From Acutalibacteraceae bacterium (lineage in GTDB: Bacteria; Bacillota; Clostridia; Oscillospirales; Acutalibacteraceae): a DNA stretch of 64,000 nucleotides. Positions 2,548 to 48,109 of this stretch are shown here, piece after piece. The notes beneath the pieces are model-generated. The model made no database searches, was not told the origin of the DNA, and saw only the letters and a list, made by a program, of their open reading frames with translations. Position numbers and translations under genes: made by a program. The stretch is taken from contig JAZUON010000007.1 in the NCBI GenBank assembly GCA_045604685.1, forward strand, positions 10,197-74,196. Direction: 5' to 3'. Numbering within the stretch: the first letter of the stretch is position 1; every line of letters begins with the position of its first letter.

Positions 2548-2790
2548 ACAAAAATAAAAATCCCCCGTCAAAAGACGAGGGACGAATAAAATCCGCGGTA
2601 CCACCCTGCATTCACGGCAAGCCGTGCGCTTTGATGCCCGTAACGGGGGCTGCCGTTGCGCCCTACTGAATTCAGGCGCACCGCTAACGGGTGAACTTCA
2701 GACATCTTAGCTCATAATCCGCTTCCAGCCGATGACGGATTTTCTCTTGAATGAGCATCGGAGCTTACTCTCCCGATCACTGCATTTTAT
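2548..2790 (-). promoter_or_regulatory. T-box leader (tRNA-Phe responsive transcription attenuator) of pheST
   Basis: Minus-strand T-box motif GGGTGGTACCGCG (2594-2606). Stem I elements AGAGA and GGCTGGAA are present. Candidate specifier UUC followed by A (2693-2695) lies directly before the base-stem strand CCCG. A terminator hairpin plus T-tract is at about 2551-2582. Confidence 0.85.
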
Positions 2791-8322: not shown

Positions 8323-8613
8323 TTATGCGCCCTGCTTAAGCTCTCTTTCAAGCCAGATGCAGCCGATATCCATTGCGCTGTAAAGGCCCTTGCGCTCTGC
8401 CTTCTTGACGATTTTATCCTTCATTCTGACATCGGGGTCTGTGTTAACGAGCTGAACAACAACTCTGTCCGCAACCTCAACGCCCTTAACCTCGCGGGTG
8501 CTTGTTATCTGCATTATAACAACATAAGGGTCGCTCATGTAGCCGTAATAAACGGTTTTGCCGCTTCTGACAAGAGGCCTGCCCTTATACATAAGGAACT
8601 TTTTTTCTGCCAC
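8323..8613 (-). CDS. hypothetical protein (conserved-looking, soluble), cotranscribed with ireB
   Basis: 96-aa ORF located 19 nt downstream of ireB. I recognise no family. Confidence 0.5.
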   Translation of the reverse strand: MAEKKFLMYKGRPLVRSGKTVYYGYMSDPYVVIMQITSTREVKGVEVADRVVVQLVNTDPDVRMKDKIVKKAERKGLYSAMDIGCIWLERELKQGA

Positions 8614-8632
8614 TTAATTCACTCCTTCAAGA

Positions 8633-8881
8633 TTATTCGATTCCAAGATAGCACTTAACCATAGCCTGAAGAAGTTCATCTCTGTCGAGCCTTCTGACAA
8701 GACTGCGTGCATTATTGTGTGTCGTGATATAGGTCGGGTCCTCGGAGAGGATATAGCCTACTATCTGGCTGATTGAGTTATAACCCTTTTCGTTCAAAGC
8801 CTCATAAACGGCGAGAAGATTTTTCTTCATCTCAACCTCATTTTCGTCCTTGATTGAAAACTTTATTGTTTTATCAGTCAT
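8633..8881 (-). CDS. ireB: IreB family regulatory phosphoprotein (UPF0297/YrzL)
   Basis: [67 protein letters not shown] is a UPF0297 signature. The ATG at 8881 sits 6 nt after GGAGGTG. The track ORF starts at 8896. Confidence 0.8.
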
Positions 8882-8980
8882 TTCGGTCACCTCCATACCA
8901 CATTATTATATAACACCTTTTGAAATAAAACAAGGTTTTTTCAAAATTTTATACAGAATCTTAAAAAAGCCTTAATAAAA

Positions 8981-10606
8981 TTACGGCTGAGGAACGATGG
9001 GATGGTTTTCGCTGACGTGCTCAACCGTGATAAAATTATTCCTTGCGGCGTATGCCCATTTCATTCCGAATGCCTTGCAGGCGCCGTCAACGGGCATATA
9101 AAGCTGACCCTCGTTGCCTCTGAAAACTTCGTAGCCGAGGTCAATATTTCCGCCGTTTGCCTGAACAAATCTGCTGCCCTCGGTGAAGGTTGCTTCCTTG
9201 CCGTAAAGCCTGAGGGTAACCCTGCCCTTTTCGCGGATATCCTCACCGCCCGCAAACCTTATCATTGTTGCAAAGGCCATATACCACACCCCGTCAATGC
9301 ATACGGGCGGAGTTGACATGTTGCAAAGCCCCAAATCTGAGCCTTTATAGAAAACCCTTGTTCTGCCCTCGCCGAATACGGGAGCTACTCTGTAAGGTCG
9401 GATTTCATCTTTCTCTTTATCTATGCGGCATTCGTCAATAATTCTGCCGTCATTAAGCTCCGAAATGAGGGTAATTTTATCGCCGTCAACCTCAATCAGG
9501 GCATATGCCGCAACCTTTTCCTCCTGAGGGTGGAATGAGGCATGCCATACCTTATCGGTTGTTTTTGTGCCGGGAGGATTGAAATTACCGTTGCCAAGCT
9601 CATAATGAACGGTGCCCTGCGAGGGTCTGTCAAAAATCTCCTCATTTTTTATGGGAAAGGAACGGGAGAAATTATGCTCATGACCCGAGAAAAGCACATC
9701 AAGCATTTCCATGGATTCTCTCATCATTGGGTAACTGTCATCATTTGCAAGGTTGGGACCTGCATAATAAATGGGGAAATGATGGGCACCGAACTTCCAT
9801 GTTTTGCCGCAATTTTCTATATCCGCCTTTGCCCATTCATTCATAAGCTCAGGCTCATTGACTCCGTAAACAACAAAATGAGCGTTGCCGTAATTGAATG
9901 AATAAATCTCCGTCTGCCAGCCCTCAGGTCCGTTTTTGGGGTAAGAATATTCAAGCTGAGTATTGAAAAATTCGGCAGGCTCTGCATAATATCTGCCCAC
10001 CTCGTTGGGGAAATACTCTTTAAAGCCTCTGTTATCGTGGTTACCGCAGCTCATCATATAAGGCAGATGCTCCATTATTCCCTGCATACCCTCAAACATT
10101 GCATTCCACTGAATTTCATGCTGACCGCAGTTTGTGTTATCCCCTGCCGTAAGAATAAACTTCACATCGGGGTGCTTTTTGAGCACATCCTTAAGGAATT
10201 TATTAAGGGTTGAATAATCGGGGTTATAATGGTCATCGTCTTTCTGATGGTCGGAAATAGCAATGAACTTGAATTTTGTAAGATTTTCTTCCTCGGTGTC
10301 AAACCAATATTCTTCGCTGCGATTTTCGGCACTTCCGCAGGTATAATAATAGCGTGTACCCGCCTTAAGATCAGATGGAGTTGCCCAGAAAATGTTGCTT
10401 GTATTCACATCGCTTTTAAAGGGTTTTACGATAGCATCGGCGCGCTTTTTTTCGCCGCCTTTTTCGTAATATTCAACATAACCTTCGGTTACATCAAGGC
10501 TTGAACGCCATGTGACCGTCATTGAGTTTTTTGCATCGCCCGAAATGCTGACCATAATATGGTCAGGTTTTTCGGTTGCAAGTCTTAAATTTGGTTTTCT
10601 GTTCAT
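8981..10606 (-). CDS. metallophosphoesterase (purple-acid-phosphatase-like N-terminal domain plus calcineurin-like core plus C-terminal stalk-like domain)
   Basis: 541 aa with FIAISDHQ, TAGDNTN, GNHD and SGHEHN metallophosphatase motifs. The N-terminal FN3-like segment reads MTVTWRS...GTRYYY. Confidence 0.75.
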   Translation of the reverse strand: MNRKPNLRLATEKPDHIMVSISGDAKNSMTVTWRSSLDVTEGYVEYYEKGGEKKRADAIVKPFKSDVNTSNIFWATPSDLKAGTRYYYTCGSAENRSEEYWFDTEEENLTKFKFIAISDHQKDDDHYNPDYSTLNKFLKDVLKKHPDVKFILTAGDNTNCGQHEIQWNAMFEGMQGIMEHLPYMMSCGNHDNRGFKEYFPNEVGRYYAEPAEFFNTQLEYSYPKNGPEGWQTEIYSFNYGNAHFVVYGVNEPELMNEWAKADIENCGKTWKFGAHHFPIYYAGPNLANDDSYPMMRESMEMLDVLFSGHEHNFSRSFPIKNEEIFDRPSQGTVHYELGNGNFNPPGTKTTDKVWHASFHPQEEKVAAYALIEVDGDKITLISELNDGRIIDECRIDKEKDEIRPYRVAPVFGEGRTRVFYKGSDLGLCNMSTPPVCIDGVWYMAFATMIRFAGGEDIREKGRVTLRLYGKEATFTEGSRFVQANGGNIDLGYEVFRGNEGQLYMPVDGACKAFGMKWAYAARNNFITVEHVSENHPIVPQP

Positions 10607-41696: not shown

Positions 41697-41709
41697 AATA
41701 CAAACAACA

Positions 41710-41732
41710 AGCCCCGACCGATGGTCGGGGCT
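41710..41732. terminator. bidirectional intrinsic terminator
   Basis: AGCCCCGACC-GAT-GGTCGGGGCT followed by TTTCTT, between convergent genes. Confidence 0.8.
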
Positions 41733-41743
41733 TTTCTTAGTCT

Positions 41744-44062
41744 TTATTTTCCTGCTCTCAGGTCAACGCGCCTGATTTTGCCGCTGATTGTTTTGGGAAG
41801 CTCATCCCTGAACTCAACGATTCTGGGATATTTATAGGGTGCAGTGCGCTCCTTGACGTATTTCTGAATTTCCTTTTTAAGAGCATCCGTTTTTTCTGTT
41901 CCCTTTGTAAGAACTATATCAGCCTTAACAACCTGACCTCTGATTTCATCGGGTGCAGCTGAAACGGCGCATTCAAGAACATAAGGGAGCTCCATGATAA
42001 CGCTTTCTATCTCGAAGGGTCCGATGCGGTAGCCCGATGACTTGATGAGATCATCAACTCTGCCCACATACCAGAAGAAACCGTCTTCATCTCTCCATGC
42101 GGTATCGCCGGTATGATAGATATTATCGTGCCATGCTTCGGTTGTTTTCTGCTCGTCGCGATAGTATTCCATGAACAGGCCGCAGGGTGAACCTGCATCT
42201 GTTCTGACAACGATTTCGCCAACCTCGCCCACCTTTGCGATTGTTCCCTCGGATGTGATAAGATCAACATCAAAAAGAGGACTGGGCTTACCCATTGAAC
42301 CGACCTTAATTGATGAACCTACAAAATTACCTATAGCAAGGGTTGTTTCCGTCTGGCCGAAACCTTCCATAAGTCTTATACCCGTTGCCTTGAGGAACTG
42401 CTGGAACACCTCGGGGTTGAGAGCCTCGCCTGCGGTTGTTGCATACTTGATTGACTTAAGGTCATATTTTGCAAGGTCTTCCTTAACAAAGAAACGATAC
42501 ATTGTGGGAGGTGCGCAGAAGGTTGTTATTTTATGCTTTCCGATGAGCTTAAGAATATCATCGGCAATGAAGCGGTCAAAGTCATAGGTGAAAACACCTG
42601 CCTCGCAAAGCCACTGACCGTAGAGCTTGCCCCAGAGAGCCTTGCCCCAGCCTGTATCTGAAATCGTAAAGTGCAGGCCGTTGGGGTCAACATTGTGCCA
42701 ATATTTGGCGGTGATGAAATGACCGAGGGGATATCTGTGGCTGTGCATTGCAATTTTGGGATAGCCCGTTGTTCCGCTTGTGAAGAACATAAGCATGGGG
42801 TCATAACCGAAAGCTCCTTCCTCAGGAGAGGGTCTTTCAAAAACATCGCTGAACTTGCAGTATTCTTCATCAAAGCTGTGCCAGCCATCACGGGTACCGT
42901 GAGCAACAATCTTTGTTTTGAGAACATCTGCTTTTTCTGCAGCAAGCTCAACCTGACGGGCAACATCACCGTCGGCAGTGCAGACAATTGCGCTTATCTG
43001 ACCCGCATTGAAGCGATATTCAAAATCATGCTCAACAAGCTGATTTGTTGCAGGAACAACAATTGCGCCTATCTTATGAAGTGCAAGGATTGAGAACCAG
43101 AACTGATAGTGGCGCTTAAGAACAAGCATTACTCTGTCGCCCTTTTTAATGCCGAGAGATTTGAAATAGTTGGCAGTCATTGCCGAATGGCGGCTCATAT
43201 CGCCAAAGGTAAATCTTCTCTCCGTGCCGTCATTTTCAACATGGAGCATCGCCGTTTTATCGGGACACTTTTTAGCAAGCTCATCAACAACGTCAAAAGC
43301 AAAGTTGAACTTGTCATCATTTTTAAAAGTTATTCCGTTAAGAACGCCGTTTTCATCAACAGTTGTTTCAATAAAATTGGCGTAAACGGGATTCTGAAGG
43401 TTAGCGAGGTCAACATTTGTTGCGCTGGGAGTTTTGATTTCCTCAACATATTCGCTCATTTCCGACGAGCCGTCCGGCGAAATAACGATTGCATAAAATT
43501 CGCATTCCTGACCGCCAACTGCAATTTCGTTATGAGGCACCGATGAATCGAAATATATACAGTCGCCTTCGTTGAGGGTTTCGGTTCTGTCACCGATAAT
43601 CATTTTAAGAGCACCTTTTGTGACAATGTTTATCTCCTGTCCTTCATGAGAAACACAGTGATAGGGAGGATTAAGAGCCTCCTCCGAATAAGGAATCACA
43701 ACCCTGAAGGGCTCTGCAATTTTGTTTTTAAAGAAAGGAGCAAGGCGGTTATATACAAAGCCTTCTCTTCTTGTTATTGGCATTCCTTCGCCTTTTCTTG
43801 TGAGAGTGTACTCTGTCAAGCTGGGGCTGCTGCCTTCCATAATATCGGTAATTTCAACATTGCAAACCTGCGCGAGTTTATAAATGAAGGTGAAGCTGAA
43901 ATCTCTGCTACCTGATTCATAGTAGCAATATTCTTCTTCGCTCATACCGATTTTTTTAGCCATTTCGCCCTGGGTAAGACCCATATCCAGACGAAGCGCA
44001 ATAATTCGCTGAGCAACCTCCATTATTTTGTTTTCGACTGAACCCTGACCAAAAGTTATCAT
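41744..44062 (-). CDS. fusion protein: XRE HTH plus cupin plus AMP-forming (medium-chain-type) acyl-CoA synthetase
   Basis: 772 aa. The HTH is LRLDMGLTQGEMAKKIGMSEEEYCYYESG, the cupin GDCIYFDSSVPH. Adenylate-forming motifs are FFTSGTTGYPK, YHTGD, GRVDDLIKSSGYRIGPFEIE and PKTISGKIRR. AAAGGAGAG RBS. Confidence 0.85.
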   Translation of the reverse strand: MITFGQGSVENKIMEVAQRIIALRLDMGLTQGEMAKKIGMSEEEYCYYESGSRDFSFTFIYKLAQVCNVEITDIMEGSSPSLTEYTLTRKGEGMPITRREGFVYNRLAPFFKNKIAEPFRVVIPYSEEALNPPYHCVSHEGQEINIVTKGALKMIIGDRTETLNEGDCIYFDSSVPHNEIAVGGQECEFYAIVISPDGSSEMSEYVEEIKTPSATNVDLANLQNPVYANFIETTVDENGVLNGITFKNDDKFNFAFDVVDELAKKCPDKTAMLHVENDGTERRFTFGDMSRHSAMTANYFKSLGIKKGDRVMLVLKRHYQFWFSILALHKIGAIVVPATNQLVEHDFEYRFNAGQISAIVCTADGDVARQVELAAEKADVLKTKIVAHGTRDGWHSFDEEYCKFSDVFERPSPEEGAFGYDPMLMFFTSGTTGYPKIAMHSHRYPLGHFITAKYWHNVDPNGLHFTISDTGWGKALWGKLYGQWLCEAGVFTYDFDRFIADDILKLIGKHKITTFCAPPTMYRFFVKEDLAKYDLKSIKYATTAGEALNPEVFQQFLKATGIRLMEGFGQTETTLAIGNFVGSSIKVGSMGKPSPLFDVDLITSEGTIAKVGEVGEIVVRTDAGSPCGLFMEYYRDEQKTTEAWHDNIYHTGDTAWRDEDGFFWYVGRVDDLIKSSGYRIGPFEIESVIMELPYVLECAVSAAPDEIRGQVVKADIVLTKGTEKTDALKKEIQKYVKERTAPYKYPRIVEFRDELPKTISGKIRRVDLRAGK

Positions 44063-44092
44063 CTTTTTCTCTCCTTTCGCTCTGAGGAAAAT

Positions 44093-44365
44093 AAAAAACG
44101 CCCCAAAGCAATCATTTTGCTTTGAGACGAGTAAAATCTAACCCGCGGTACCACTCAAATTGCGCTTTTGCGCCACTCATCGGACTCCAACAAGCCCTAC
44201 GCCTTAACGCGGCATTAACGGAAGCTGTCTACTCACCCACAAGGAATTTTCGGAGCTTCGGCTCGGAAGGGATAGCTTTGAAATGCTCTGCTGACGGCTC
44301 GCACCAAACGCCGCCTCTCTGAAAACTTTGCAAATCAGCCTTCTTCGTCATTGCTTTTATGTCAG
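44093..44365 (-). promoter_or_regulatory. T-box leader upstream of the HTH-cupin-acyl-CoA synthetase gene
   Basis: On the minus strand: AGAGAG, the distal-loop GGTGCGAG, and T-box motif GAGTGGTACCGCGGG (44144-44156). A 13-bp terminator stem (44099-44129) is followed by TTTTTT (44093-44098). Specifier candidates are AUC (44271-44273) or GCU (44274-44276). Confidence 0.8.
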
Positions 44366-44367
44366 TA

Positions 44368-44396
44368 ATAATAACACCGAAAAAACAATTTGTCAA
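44368..44396 (-). promoter_or_regulatory. sigma-A promoter of the T-box leader
   Basis: On the minus strand: TTGACA (44391-44396), a 17-nt spacer, then TATTAT (44368-44373). Confidence 0.7.
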
Positions 44397-44457: not shown

Positions 44458-46257
44458 TCAGATTTTGTTTTCCAAGCCTAAAATTACAACTGCTTTTTCA
44501 ACAATATTGCCTGCAAGAATGGTCATTTTGTCAACAAGAGACTCAAAGAAGCTCTTTTCTTCTGCATCATATGTTGCAACAGTTCCGATATTTGCGCTGA
44601 TAAAGGCTGTTTTTTCATCCACGAAATCTGCAACCTTTTTAACATCATTTGCATATGCAGCCTTAATTTCAGCAACATCCGTTGTGCCGTAAACATTCCA
44701 GCGGATTGCATTTGCAACAGCTGAATCCTCTATTGCTGCCACATAATCCGTTGTTATATATTCAGCAGCAGAGCTGAATGCATTTTTCAGAACCAAATCC
44801 CACTTCTCCTTGCAAAGATTAATGAAATCCTGATTTTTAGCAAGAAGATTATAGAATGTGGGGATATGAGTTAACTCGCCGGCTCCGAAAATCGTGTTGT
44901 TACGAAGAGTGCTGCGATAAACAGTCCACTGAGAGGGCTTGTTATAATTCAAACCGAATCTGACCACATCGCAGTTACCCAGAGCTTTATCAAAATCCCA
45001 AACGGGGCCTGCATAAAGAGTGTCGTCAACGGGTTTGTAGAGATATGTGCTGGTAAGGCCTGCATCATGATTTGCCACCCACTCATTGAAAACATAGGAA
45101 TCAACAAGAGAATTAATATTGCAGTATTCACCGATTGCATCAATGCTCTGATTGCCGTGAACAGCATTTTCAAAAAGCTGATAATAGCTTGCAATGTAAA
45201 TCACCTCATTTTCAGAGGCATATTCGGGGGATTTGAGGATAACCGCCTGACTGTTTTCCGTTACAAAGCCGCTGACCTCATCATCATATCTGCCGGGAAG
45301 CTCCAATTCGATAATGTAGCCGCCTGTGATATCCTTGGGGTCATTGGGAATTTCAACCCATTTTCTTGTGCCCTCAAGGTAGCCTGACAAGCTGCCGTAA
45401 ACACCGCCTCTGGGCAATGCCTCAATATCAACATCGGGATTTGCATCTTCATTAAGGTCTTCAAGATTATCAATGTTGACTCTTGTTTTATCAACCTCAA
45501 CCCTCGTTGTGAGAAGATAGGCGCCCATATATTCACCGTTTATGTAAACATCAACGGGCTCATACTTGGGGGTATAAGCTATTCCCGCATTCTCTGCCGC
45601 GGTGAAAGCAAGGCTGTTTCTGATAAGCGATGCATCCGAATAATTGGCAAGGAGGCTCCATTTTTTGCTCTTGCCCATGCCGAAAAGATTTACTTTATCC
45701 TCCAACTTGATGTTATAGGGCTTTTTATCAAGGCCCCAGGTTGAGTTGCCTCTGCCTTTGATGTAATCAAGCTCGCCGTCGCATTCAACGCTGCCGTCTG
45801 CGCCGATGATTGTGATTTCACCTTTTTCCTTGTGCTCCTTATCTGCATGCACACTGTCAAGCGAACCGCTTTCGGTTTCGATAAACACTGTTGATACATC
45901 TGATATAGCTATAATCTTTATCTTATAGCTTGCGCTGCCGCTTGTGAGTGTTACTTCGGTTTTATCTGCAAGGAATGCAGCGGATGAGCCATCTTCAATC
46001 TTAACACCGTCCGCATAAACATCGCCGCTTGCTGAAAAATTAACCTTTGCCTCGTCAAAGTTAATTGACTGAGGCACAAAAAGATACATTGCATCATCTG
46101 CAGCATACCATTCAATGCAAAGCTGAGCGCCGTGTTCTTTTTCTTCAATAATTCCTACCGAAAACTCGGATATTGCATCATCTGCGGCAAATCCCGCAAG
46201 GCATCCGAATGAGCAGGAAATAATAATTGCCATAAGTACAGAAATAACTCTTTTCAC
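44458..46257 (-). CDS. secreted CotH-family (atypical kinase fold) protein, paralog 1
   Basis: 599 aa with a signal peptide. IKGRGNSTWGLDKKPYNIKL...GMGKSKKWSLLANYSDASLIRN...YEPVDVYINGEYMGAYLL is a CotH signature. It has the C-terminal amphipathic tail. Confidence 0.8.
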   Translation of the reverse strand: MKRVISVLMAIIISCSFGCLAGFAADDAISEFSVGIIEEKEHGAQLCIEWYAADDAMYLFVPQSINFDEAKVNFSASGDVYADGVKIEDGSSAAFLADKTEVTLTSGSASYKIKIIAISDVSTVFIETESGSLDSVHADKEHKEKGEITIIGADGSVECDGELDYIKGRGNSTWGLDKKPYNIKLEDKVNLFGMGKSKKWSLLANYSDASLIRNSLAFTAAENAGIAYTPKYEPVDVYINGEYMGAYLLTTRVEVDKTRVNIDNLEDLNEDANPDVDIEALPRGGVYGSLSGYLEGTRKWVEIPNDPKDITGGYIIELELPGRYDDEVSGFVTENSQAVILKSPEYASENEVIYIASYYQLFENAVHGNQSIDAIGEYCNINSLVDSYVFNEWVANHDAGLTSTYLYKPVDDTLYAGPVWDFDKALGNCDVVRFGLNYNKPSQWTVYRSTLRNNTIFGAGELTHIPTFYNLLAKNQDFINLCKEKWDLVLKNAFSSAAEYITTDYVAAIEDSAVANAIRWNVYGTTDVAEIKAAYANDVKKVADFVDEKTAFISANIGTVATYDAEEKSFFESLVDKMTILAGNIVEKAVVILGLENKI

Positions 46258-46318
46258 AAAAGCACTCCTTTCAACTCATTTCAAAATCCGCGCACCAAAA
46301 AGCGAAGAGATATGAATT

Positions 46319-48109
46319 TCAGATTTTGTTTACAAGATCAAATATAACAATAGCCTTTTCAAAAATGTTGTTAACACCAACAAGGAAGCCCTTGAAGAAC
46401 TTAACAACGGGGTTGGTCTGAGGAGCATTATCCTGCACCTCGTCTACACCTGCGCTGATTGTTGCAGCCTTTGTTTTTGCAAAGTTGATTACTTCCTTAA
46501 CCTCATCTGCATATGCAGCCTTGATATCGTCTATATCATCTGTGCCGAAAATGTTCCAGCGGATTGCATTCGCAACAGCGGAGCCCTCAACAAAGGGAGC
46601 ATAGATGCTTTCAACCCAAGCCGTTGTTGTGTTAAGTGCGGTGCTCATACCGCCGTTCCATTCAGCTTCAAGAACGTCAACAAAGCCCTCGTTCTTTGTG
46701 ATTATGTTGAACACATTGGGCTGCTCGTCAATATCCCACTTGCCGAAAATTGTGTTTCTGTACATTCTGTTGTAGCAAACAGTCCATTTCGTGGGGTCGT
46801 TATAATTATTTCCAAAGCGTTCGCCGTCGTTATTGCCGAAAGCAATGTCAAAATCCCATACAGGGCCTGCATAGAGGGTTTCGTGTACGCCCTTGGGCTT
46901 GTAGAAATATGTGCTTGTAAGGCCGCCGTCCATATTGGATGCCCACTCATTAATGAGATAAAGACGTGCAAGAGACTGAACATTGCAATATTTGCCGATT
47001 TCCGCCATATCGGACTCAGCATAAACAGCATCCTCAAACAACTGATAAAGGCTACTGATATAGCTGATCTGTGCCTCTGAGACAAATTCGGGAGTTTTCA
47101 TTGTAAAAGGCTGGTTACGGGTTGTAACAAAGCCGCATGCCTCGTCAGCATATCTGTTGGCAAGCTCCATTTCGATGATGTAGCCACCTGTGATATCTTC
47201 GGGGTCATTGGGAATATCATACCATTTCTTTGTGCCTGCAAGAAGGCCTGCATATGTGCCGTAATAACCCGCCTTGGGGTAGGTATCAAGGTCTGCCTCG
47301 TTTGCATCCTCTGTTGCGCCCTCAAGGTCCTCAATATCAACACTTGTGCCGTCAATACCCACTCTTGTTGTAAGAAGGTATGAACCCATATATTCGCTGT
47401 TAATGTAAACATCAACGGGCTCAAACTGAGGTGAATAAGGCATACCGGCCGCTTTTGCTGCTTCGTATGCAAGAACGTTTCTGATAAGGGACTCATCGCC
47501 GTGGTTTGCAATAAGGCTCCATTTTTTGCTCTTGCCCATACCGAAAAGGTTGGTTTTCTTATCCAGCTTGATGTTATAGGGTTTCTTTTCCATCTGCCAT
47601 GTTGAGTTGCCTCTGCCCTTGATTTCAAGCTCACCGTCATAAACAACTTCGCCGTCACGGTCAACAATTTCAATCATACCGTTTTCTTCGTTACCCTTAA
47701 CGGCATGGATATAATCAAGAGAACCTGACTCGGTTTCAATAAATACAGAAGCAACCTCTGAACCCTTGATGATAAAAACATCGTATGTCCAGCCGTCAAA
47801 TTCAACCGTAATCTCTGTTTTATTGCCAAAAACCTCTGCAAGAGTTTTGGGCTCGGTATAATCTACGCCGTCAACGGTGTAGTCGCCGGGAACATAAAAC
47901 TTTGCGGTATCATAATCAATTGATGCGGGAATAAAGAAATAACATTTGCCGTTTACCTCATACCAGTTGATTGCTCTGTCATAGCCGTTCTCTTCATCAT
48001 AATGATTTGCAATATAACCGGTAACGTGATGACCATCAGCATAACCTATCATTGCAAATGCCGAAAATGCCATAACCGCAGCAAGAATGAATGCTAAAAT
48101 TTTTTTCAT
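46319..48109 (-). CDS. secreted CotH-family protein, paralog 2
   Basis: 596 aa, roughly 55-60 percent identical by eye to paralog 1 over the CotH core. It has a signal peptide and the same C-terminal ...IFEKAIVIFDLVNKI-type tail. Confidence 0.8.
   Translation of the reverse strand: MKKILAFILAAVMAFSAFAMIGYADGHHVTGYIANHYDEENGYDRAINWYEVNGKCYFFIPASIDYDTAKFYVPGDYTVDGVDYTEPKTLAEVFGNKTEITVEFDGWTYDVFIIKGSEVASVFIETESGSLDYIHAVKGNEENGMIEIVDRDGEVVYDGELEIKGRGNSTWQMEKKPYNIKLDKKTNLFGMGKSKKWSLIANHGDESLIRNVLAYEAAKAAGMPYSPQFEPVDVYINSEYMGSYLLTTRVGIDGTSVDIEDLEGATEDANEADLDTYPKAGYYGTYAGLLAGTKKWYDIPNDPEDITGGYIIEMELANRYADEACGFVTTRNQPFTMKTPEFVSEAQISYISSLYQLFEDAVYAESDMAEIGKYCNVQSLARLYLINEWASNMDGGLTSTYFYKPKGVHETLYAGPVWDFDIAFGNNDGERFGNNYNDPTKWTVCYNRMYRNTIFGKWDIDEQPNVFNIITKNEGFVDVLEAEWNGGMSTALNTTTAWVESIYAPFVEGSAVANAIRWNIFGTDDIDDIKAAYADEVKEVINFAKTKAATISAGVDEVQDNAPQTNPVVKFFKGFLVGVNNIFEKAIVIFDLVNKI

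Follow-up and report, generated by a model that had tools for sequence, protein, structure and literature searches.

A gene on the minus strand of a 64,000-nt stretch of DNA from an Acutalibacteraceae bacterium encodes an acyl-CoA synthetase that is fused to a helix-turn-helix (HTH)-cupin module, and its transcript begins with a T-box leader, a type of RNA switch that responds to the charging state of a particular tRNA. The 64,000 nt are referred to below as the window, and all coordinates without a locus number are positions in it. We argue here that the leader reads an isoleucine codon and that the enzyme probably feeds a branched-chain acid into isoleucine synthesis. The open reading frame (ORF; 41744..44062, with its ATG at 44062 and its end at 41744) specifies a protein of 772 amino acids (aa), in which the HTH-cupin module and the short branched-chain acyl-CoA synthetase, or ligase, are read in one frame. 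A sigma-A promoter (44368..44396), with 11 of 12 matches to the consensus, is formed by TTGACA (44396-44391), a 17-nt spacer and TATTAT (44373-44368), and the -10 element is preceded by TG. The sequence TTGACA(A), with an A/T-rich tract before it, recurs in 60 of 64 orthologous promoter regions. The leader is about 240 nt long, and a ribosome-binding site read from the sequence, AAAGGAGAG (44069..44077), stands 6 nt before the ATG. The ligase gene is monocistronic in the window, the unit being closed by a bidirectional terminator hairpin (41709..41733, minus strand) beyond which lies a convergent DUF3798 gene. An earlier note on this DNA had described the promoter, the Stem I elements, the T-box motif, a terminator, the ribosome-binding site and the 772-aa ORF, and all of these are found on the minus strand where it had placed them.

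The leader is a T-box

A permissive scan of the leader gives a full-length match to the Rfam T-box family RF00230 (44120..44360, minus strand; model positions 1-219; 88.6 bits, E 3.9e-20), which spans Stem I, Stem II, the IIA/B element, Stem III and the antiterminator. The curated gathering score of this family is 93 bits, and the window leader falls 4.4 bits short of it. Because its score lies under this threshold, the ligase leader is omitted from a default Rfam scan of the whole window, which returns a single T-box, that of pheS. Six orthologous leaders score 80.2, 89.9, 90.7, 98.6, 102 and 106.9 bits, so that the subfamily straddles the threshold, and automated catalogues under-report it because part of it scores below the Rfam cut-off. 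The shortfall maps to a specifier loop that is not canonical. The pheS T-box itself is canonical (2575-2789, minus strand; 114 bits; specifier UUC) and lies upstream of pheS at 1444-2523 on the same strand.

The elements expected of a T-box can be followed along the leader. Stem I (44261..44355) has at its base a GA/kink-turn (K-turn) motif, AUGACGAAG...CUUCCGAGC (AGC AAUGA C GAAG ... CUUC CGA GC), and contains the specifier loop, an AGAGAG bulge (44320-44315) and a distal hairpin, GGCGGC-GUUUGGUGCGA-GCCGUC (44314-44293); the distal loop reads GGUGCGAG. In the window the specifier loop has AAGGC on its 5' side and AAAG on its 3' side, and its size varies across the family. Folding of the window Stem I by itself to its minimum free energy (MFE) yields a structure other than the canonical one (z = +1.1 to +1.7); since single-sequence MFE is uninformative in this case, the structure assigned to Stem I is that of the covariance model and the comparative data. 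The T-box sequence proper, AAUUUGAGUGGUACCGCGGGU (44141..44161, minus strand), in which the motif GAGUGGUACCGCGGG can be read directly, holds a UGGU (44153-44150) that would pair with the 3' end of a tRNA, ACCA. This predicts an A at the discriminator position of that tRNA (A73), and the tRNA-Val(UAC) of a related Ruminococcus genome does end in ...A-CCA, i.e. has A73.

The switch at the 3' end of the leader is complete. The antiterminator (44121..44159, minus strand; -9.7 kcal/mol) comprises helix A1 (UUUGAG/CUCAAA), the 7-nt bulge UGGUACC and helix A2 (GCGGG/CUCGU), while the intrinsic terminator (44093..44129, minus strand, the hairpin being called at 44129..44099; -17.7 kcal/mol, z = -6.5) has a 13-bp stem, a 5-nt loop and a run of six U. 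The two folds are mutually exclusive because the 3' arm of the antiterminator and the 5' arm of the terminator overlap at 44129-44121. As the terminator is the stronger of the two, this is the usual T-box layout, in which transcription terminates by default and uncharged tRNA must stabilise the antiterminator. The proposal of the earlier note that the leader is a complete, transcription-terminating T-box is thus borne out by the significant full-length RF00230 match together with the antiterminator, which was looked for as an alternative fold and is present.

The leader shares its modules with the B. subtilis ileS and tyrS leaders, which belong to the same Rfam family: the GA/K-turn motif, the specifier loop, the AGAGA bulge and the distal loop of Stem I, then Stem II, the IIA/B element, Stem III, a T-box with a UGGN bulge, and mutually exclusive antiterminator and terminator folds. 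It departs from classic T-boxes in that the gene downstream encodes an acyl-CoA synthetase fusion rather than an aminoacyl-tRNA synthetase, a classical ilv gene product or a transporter, and that its specifier loop is of variable size and lacks the S-turn consensus.

Orthologs of the gene are encoded in at least 598 species-representative genomes. We collected 80 loci from such genomes (given L-numbers where they are named below), with ortholog identities of 61-95%. On a first count, TGGTACC was present 57-260 nt upstream of the gene in 65 of these 80 loci; after re-inspection, in which L002 was left out because its contig is too short and L062 was seen to have T-boxes on both of its copies, the leader was assigned to 66 of 79 assessable loci. 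Among 58 complete leaders aligned with MAFFT (alignment A2), the sequences AGAGA, GGUG and UGGUACC are invariant. In this alignment RNAalifold finds the distal helix of Stem I, Stem II, the IIA/B element, Stem III and the terminator. Covariation was scored on a specified structure of 40 pairs that includes the Stem I base helix and the antiterminator. Standard pairs fill 95.7% of the cells for the 58 leaders, a value that drops to about 50% if the 3' side of each pair is displaced by a single column, and compensatory changes occur in 26 of the 40 pairs; the observed values were reached by none of 500 shuffles. Five of the six pairs of the distal Stem I helix covary, as does the base helix. The antiterminator helices (helices 7 and 8) are paired in 97-99% of cases, with compensatory changes at columns 275/322 and 292/312, and the terminator pairs are conserved across the leaders with alternation between G-U and A-U. 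Conservation among orthologs and covariation therefore establish the T-box element far beyond chance. This RNA is a genuine T-box, in which every structural feature tested is present except for the S-turn consensus and, in the window copy, a score at the gathering level.

The specifier is an isoleucine codon

The specifier (44271..44273, minus strand) reads AUC (Ile) and is followed by an unpaired C (44270) and by the CUUC strand of the base helix (44269-44266). The corresponding alignment columns, 121-123, contain ATC in 55 of the 58 leaders and GTA in three. By contrast with this constancy the triplet that precedes the specifier is variable (GCT, CCT, CCC, CTT, GTG, CAC, CCG or CCA). The nucleotide that follows it is most often A (34 leaders), then C (18), G (five) and T (one). 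The register of the base helix is fixed by compensatory changes from A-U to G-C within it. The same columns of the Rfam model read UUC in the pheS T-box of the window, which serves as a positive control from the same genome, and CUC in a T-box that precedes a LeuA-like gene in related genomes. AUC is also the usual specifier codon in ileS leaders.

The earlier note had left the choice between AUC and GCU (Ala) undecided, invoking the rule that a purine follows the specifier codon. That the leader senses a tRNA other than tRNA-Ile, whether through GCU or through some other codon, now appears extremely improbable. It is true that GCU immediately precedes AUC in the window and has a purine after it, that AUC is itself followed there by C and not by the usual purine, and that a shifted base-helix register, GAAGG/CCUUC, is thermodynamically possible if the window sequence is taken alone. 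However, GCU is confined to the window and to L001, L026 and L027, as against the 55 leaders with AUC, and covariation of the base helix supports the register in which AUC occupies the canonical position. An Ala specifier is ruled out by the variability of the preceding triplet. The purine rule retains its value for the family as a whole, in which A is the commonest nucleotide after the codon, and fails in the window, where a C variant is found. On comparison of the leader sequences, the window specifier is AUC and the leader is predicted to be specific for isoleucine.

The synthetase resembles enzymes that activate short branched-chain acids

The catalytic portion of the protein (41777..43282, minus strand) belongs to the ANL superfamily of acyl-CoA synthetases, with Pfam AMP-binding (aa 261-633) and AMP-binding_C (aa 684-762) domains scoring 199 and 76 bits, respectively, and with the core motifs TSGTTGYPK, YHTGD, SSGYRIGPFEIE and SGKIRR. 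Over 520 aa it is 53.5% identical to MacsMa (MA4008; PDB 3ETC), an acyl-CoA synthetase of medium-chain type from the archaeon Methanosarcina acetivorans that has neither the HTH-cupin extension nor a T-box. The preferred substrate of MacsMa is 2-methylbutyrate, the binding of substrate depending critically on residue Trp259 (PMC10455477). This residue aligns with W455 of the window protein, which lies in the motif YW(H/Q)NV and is itself invariant in 14 orthologs. The Tyr and Arg residues of the CoA site are likewise conserved relative to MacsMa, and a Gly in a GFGQTET motif takes the place of the Trp that lines the acetate pocket of Acs (judged by eye in the 3etc alignment). No published statement on the physiological role of MacsMa was found.

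Among NCBIfam models the best match is MbcS, the methylbutyryl-CoA synthetase of Staphylococcus aureus (NF047394), which in purified form is selective for 2-methylbutyrate and isobutyrate and acts poorly on isovalerate (PMC10026030). This specificity mirrors the specifiers of the T-box family, in which Ile and Val leaders are seen and no Leu leader is. MbcS differs from the window protein in having a single domain and in its documented role, which is the supply of fatty-acid primers and not amino-acid synthesis; the published work on MbcS that was searched does not mention a T-box. The substrate of the window enzyme is most likely 2-methylbutyrate, to judge from these relatives.

Tandem paralogs pair isoleucine and valine leaders

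The type of specifier follows the phylogeny of the proteins. Ile-type leaders are spread across nearly all lineages, and the Val-type leaders, which read GUA, cluster together. Nine genomes carry tandem paralogs of the ligase gene, each behind a T-box of its own, the first with AUC and the second with GUA (L043, L050, L056, L058, L062, L063, L065, L066 and L080; e.g. L062:3659-13225). The Val-type copy heads a co-directional gene cluster, in which the gene for the alpha subunit of a 2-oxoacid:ferredoxin oxidoreductase (OFOR) follows in eight loci (L050, L056, L062, L065, L066, L080 and L074, the rest by cluster membership). Where the loci extend far enough, ilvE also follows the Val-type copy (L062, L074 and L080, with L041 by cluster membership). 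The order after the Val-type copy in L062 is a 220-aa protein, a 68-aa ferredoxin-like delta subunit with two [4Fe-4S] clusters, the alpha, beta and gamma subunits, and ilvE. The OFOR alpha subunit of this locus passes the NCBIfam model for VorB (NF005507; 550 bits, cut-off 399), so that the enzyme is termed VOR-type below, and the branched-chain aminotransferase passes the IlvE equivalog model (NF009897; 486 bits, cut-off 307). By these assignments, the tandem loci hold what reads as a complete gene set for the conversion of branched-chain acids to amino acids.

The protein of about 220 aa (L062:8898-9563) has homologs in 10 loci and is encoded directly after the Val-type ligase and before the VOR-type genes where these are present. 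It has no Pfam match and shows weak N-terminal P-loop similarity of the ParA/Mrp kind; it may be an Fe-S or maturation factor. In L065 (8528-10123) the Val-type copy is broken into three ORFs, with the T-box and the downstream VOR-type genes intact, and this copy is either a pseudogene or the product of an assembly error.

Eleven Ruminococcus loci that have no T-box (L004, L005, L008, L009, L010, L012, L013, L016, L017, L022 and L025) form a single paralog cluster, and one metagenome-assembled genome carries both kinds (L013 and L021). The T-box-less paralogs share a conserved leader of their own, about 200 nt upstream of the gene. It has a TTGACA-17-TATAAT promoter, then the TATGTAAGCAC box where the transcript starts, 60-250 nt of variable sequence, and a conserved context around the ribosome-binding site. 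No Rfam family matched this leader; the TATGTAAGCAC element could be either an operator or a novel element of the leader.

A proposed salvage route to isoleucine

Since the 1960s it has been known that cellulolytic ruminococci, like many gut Clostridia, require branched-chain volatile fatty acids, from which they form isoleucine, valine and leucine by reductive carboxylation. In that decade, Allison, Bryant and co-workers reportedly found that ruminococci not only need these acids but incorporate 2-methylbutyrate into isoleucine. We know of no assignment of the genes for acid activation in these bacteria.

Collectively, the observations described above suggest, with a probability that we put at roughly 70%, that the ligase under the Ile T-box supplies 2-methylbutyrate, by way of reductive carboxylation, for the synthesis of isoleucine. 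When isoleucine is scarce, the anticodon of uncharged tRNA-Ile(GAU) would pair with the AUC specifier in Stem I, the elbow of the tRNA would dock on the platform formed by the AGAGAG bulge and the distal loop, and its free ACCA end would pair with the UGGU of the T-box bulge. The weak antiterminator would thereby be stabilised against the stronger terminator, and RNA polymerase would read on into the ORF. The ligase would then convert exogenous 2-methylbutyrate to 2-methylbutyryl-CoA, a VOR-type 2-oxoacid:ferredoxin oxidoreductase would carboxylate this reductively to 3-methyl-2-oxopentanoate, and IlvE would transaminate the latter to isoleucine. The Val-type paralogs, under their GUA T-box, would serve the same route from isobutyrate to valine. 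In this scheme we infer the tRNA-dependent read-through, the actual substrate and the reductive direction of the VOR step, as well as the presence of VOR and IlvE elsewhere in the genome of the window organism. The biosynthetic direction is favoured because the induction of a ligase, VOR and IlvE in response to uncharged tRNA-Val would be self-defeating if valine were being degraded.

The idea of the earlier note that a branched-chain acid is activated for amino-acid synthesis has therefore gained ground, through the AUC specifier, the tandem Ile/Val paralogs, the cluster with VOR-type genes and ilvE, and the similarity to MacsMa and MbcS. Its statement that the T-box controls this gene instead of one for an aminoacyl-tRNA synthetase, amino-acid biosynthesis or transport was too strong, in that the ligase is most likely itself a biosynthesis gene, of a salvage route by reductive carboxylation. 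As an amino-acid biosynthesis gene of an alternative route it makes no exception to T-box logic.

A number of observations weigh against this assignment. In the leader, they include the C after the specifier, the alternative base-helix register and the absence from the specifier loop of the S-turn (loop E) consensus AGUA/GAA; the same genomes do have canonical S-turns in their T-boxes of the Leu, Tyr and Phe types. For the enzyme, the match to the MbcS model reaches 444 bits where the equivalog cut-off is 850, which makes the protein a relative of MacsMa and MbcS and not MbcS itself, and the assignment of 2-methylbutyrate as its substrate is carried over from enzymes that are 48-54% identical. 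Moreover, no residue of the enzyme domain strictly separates the Ile-type from the Val-type proteins, and only under relaxed criteria do seven such positions appear in the enzyme and seven in the HTH-cupin. At the level of the genome, no synteny is conserved around the ligase gene in the window or in most loci, the link to VOR and IlvE being confined to those with a Val-type copy, and the 64-kb window contains no VOR or ilvE homolog, which means that the pathway link for the window organism is borrowed from its relatives. Finally, the acyl-CoA product could equally prime the synthesis of anteiso fatty acids.

This last point leads to a different primary purpose for the enzyme, which is that it salvages external 2-methylbutyrate as a primer for anteiso fatty acids and so spares isoleucine. 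Such a gene might well be induced when isoleucine is scarce and no longer yields 2-methylbutyryl-CoA. MbcS, the closest named family, does have a lipid-primer role in S. aureus (PMC10026030; see also PMC11167679). In the window and in most other loci, moreover, the ligase gene has neither VOR nor IlvE beside it. In ruminococci, lipids too are a destination of branched-chain acids. For a gene that supplies lipid primers, however, one would look to membrane or fatty-acid signals as the inducer, and not to tRNA charging. In the eight loci with the oxidoreductase, the VOR-type genes moreover follow the Val-type copy in the same direction and, in loci long enough to show it, ilvE comes next, the whole set lying behind the Val T-box; the induction of a transaminase and a 2-oxoacid oxidoreductase upon valine starvation fits the synthesis of valine and not its breakdown to a primer. 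We consider lipid priming as the primary purpose quite improbable, although the lipid and amino-acid uses of the product are not mutually exclusive.

If the ligase does serve isoleucine synthesis, the family offers a lead to the genes, long unaccounted for, that underlie the need of rumen and gut Clostridia for branched-chain acids. Its members are annotated only as 'AMP-binding protein', and the T-box specifier provides an independent label of the amino acid that they serve, marking a large unnamed family as linked to isoleucine or valine and, in some genomes, tying it physically to VOR-type genes and IlvE. This yields candidate genes for the salvage of 2-methylbutyrate and isobutyrate in cultured organisms, e.g. 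Ruminococcus flavefaciens SAb67, with a bearing on rumen nutrition, in which branched-chain acids are given as supplements, and on predictions of amino-acid auxotrophy in gut bacteria.

The mechanism by which this T-box would act is an ordinary one; its target is new and yet logically consistent. We found no published link between a T-box and an acyl-CoA synthetase, 2-methylbutyrate or VOR, an earlier listing in the tables of Vitreschak et al. (2008), RegPrecise or TBDB being possible. CoA does not occur anywhere in the T-box catalogue of Wels et al. (2008), and the TBDB preprint does not discuss targets of this kind. As far as the literature searched goes, the combination of a T-box with a short branched-chain acyl-CoA ligase, the partition of paralogs between isoleucine and valine, the cluster of a Val T-box with ligase, VOR and IlvE, and the HTH-cupin fusion all appear to be undescribed.

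The HTH-cupin module

The N-terminal part of the protein contains an XRE-type HTH_3 domain (aa 21-73; 43844..44002, minus strand), which scores 38.2 bits in Pfam against a cut-off of 23, and a Pfam Cupin_2 barrel (aa 138-192; 43487..43651, minus strand). Its residues H139, E143 and H177 are invariant, stand-alone HTH-cupin relatives included. The fusion to the ligase is universal in the family: among the first 120 homologs listed, almost all are 762-800 aa long and have the same four domains. The single-ORF fusion reported in the earlier note is accordingly real, its three domains being recognised by Pfam models. A frameshift or a mis-assembly of two genes is ruled out by thousands of homologs of the same length.

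In an AlphaFold model of aa 1-235 (pLDDT 83) the five-helix HTH reaches about 90 and the cupin exceeds 90. The best two-domain matches found by Foldseek are HppE, Psf4, HEPD and MPnS (E 4e-12 to 1e-8), and 1y9q, a structural-genomics entry annotated as an HTH_3 transcriptional regulator, is also among the top structural matches. Like the window protein, HppE/Psf4 and HEPD/MPnS begin with a five-helix XRE-like domain and continue with a cupin barrel; they differ from it in that TM-scores are 0.4-0.5 and identity is about 20%, and in that the window module is fused to an ANL ligase. HppE, Psf4, HEPD and MPnS belong to the Fe(II) enzymes, and their HTH-like domain is not known to bind DNA. The H-x3-E...H pattern of the cupin resembles the 2-His-1-Glu site of HppE. 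Overall the module appears to be most like HppE-type HTH-cupins; it may bind DNA, but nothing observed points that way.

In one lineage, different from that of the window, the two parts are encoded separately (L086:5001-7275). A stand-alone HTH-cupin of 189 aa (37% identity) lies 17 nt upstream of a ligase of 562 aa (48% identity). There is no T-box at this locus, and an Rfam search found no known RNA family upstream of it. Another stand-alone HTH-cupin relative, P0170 (L081-L085), precedes two genes for ATP-binding cassette (ABC) exporters.

The earlier note had likened the fusion to BirA, with an acyl-adenylate as the corepressor, a comparison that implies a trigger enzyme: the HTH-cupin would be a DNA-binding regulator, acting on its own promoter or on other branched-chain amino-acid genes in response to the acid, acyl-AMP, acyl-CoA or the 2-oxoacid, and the gene would be under dual control by RNA and protein. 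In its favour, the HTH_3 domain scores above the Pfam cut-off and is fused to the ligase throughout the family, and 1y9q, a regulator by annotation, is structurally similar. Gene arrangement can be read in the same way, in that the split form has the layout of an autoregulated operon, with the HTH-cupin just ahead of a ligase that lacks a T-box, a stand-alone relative stands ahead of exporter genes, and the TATGTAAGCAC box shared by the T-box-less paralogs is a possible operator. In addition, the HTH-cupin contains half of the positions at which Ile-type and Val-type proteins differ (T58A, K62R, K114R and F119L), a sign that the module may be adapted to the pathway. Against this, the HTH carries a mean net charge of -5.4 to -6, or about -5.5 across the family, and its helix 3 is acidic (S-E-E-E-Y in the window, S-x-E-E-Y-x-x-x-E-x-G in the family), the best structural matches are to enzymes whose HTH-like domain is not known to bind DNA, the H139/E143/H177 triad looks like a metal site rather than a typical effector pocket, and the 64 promoter regions share no palindromic operator beyond the promoter elements themselves. 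The BirA analogy, in particular, goes no further than the joining of a DNA-binding-type domain to an adenylate-forming enzyme. The catalytic domain of BirA has the biotin protein ligase fold, the window enzyme belongs to the ANL superfamily, and Pfam detects no biotin-protein-ligase domain in it; with unrelated catalytic folds, an acidic HTH and no common operator, the likeness does not hold up as more than an analogy. We regard the trigger-enzyme proposal as unlikely.

Other T-boxes near acid-activating genes

Several further T-boxes were seen in the genomes that carry the ligase family. A canonical Leu T-box (CUC; 125 bits) controls the LeuA-like gene at L055:1419-5586 and is found also in L042, L046, L053, L078 and L015. 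The LeuA-like protein has HMGL and LeuA_dimer domains and scores below the leuA equivalog cut-offs. Its gene is translationally coupled to one for an 819-aa protein that joins a xylose-isomerase-like TIM barrel to a FadD-like AMP-binding domain, and this operon is possibly a leucine-related route of acid activation. A T-box that reads GAA-UUC-C lies before genes for a PaaK-like ligase and an ACT-pair protein (L046:11584-13687); its specifier is probably Phe, with a UCC (Ser) register as the alternative. A Tyr T-box (GAA-UAC-A; L039:9965-10212, minus strand) precedes a sodium:solute symporter (SSF) gene (8358-9893, minus strand).

These arrangements suggest that it is a wider habit of these bacteria to place acid-activating enzymes under amino-acid-specific T-boxes. 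More tentatively, the T-boxes and the HTH-cupin may be linked in a single system, an acid-salvage regulon of gut and rumen Clostridia with a second layer of sensing, a joint reading that we hold to be speculative and somewhat doubtful. Its members may include, for isoleucine, the 2-methylbutyrate ligase; for valine, the isobutyrate ligase with VOR and IlvE; for leucine, the TIM-barrel-ligase fusion with the LeuA-like protein; and, for phenylalanine, the PaaK-like ligase with the ACT protein. The HTH-cupin, with its invariant His/Glu/His site and its residues that vary between Ile-type and Val-type proteins, may in that case be the second sensor, the signal being a metal, some ligand or the end product, or else a DNA binder, and the ligase would be a trigger enzyme controlled by both RNA and protein.

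Neighbouring genes

Directly upstream of the ligase gene in the window are two tandem genes for CotH-domain proteins of 599 and 596 aa (44458-48109, minus strand), which end in a terminator of their own (44451-44422).

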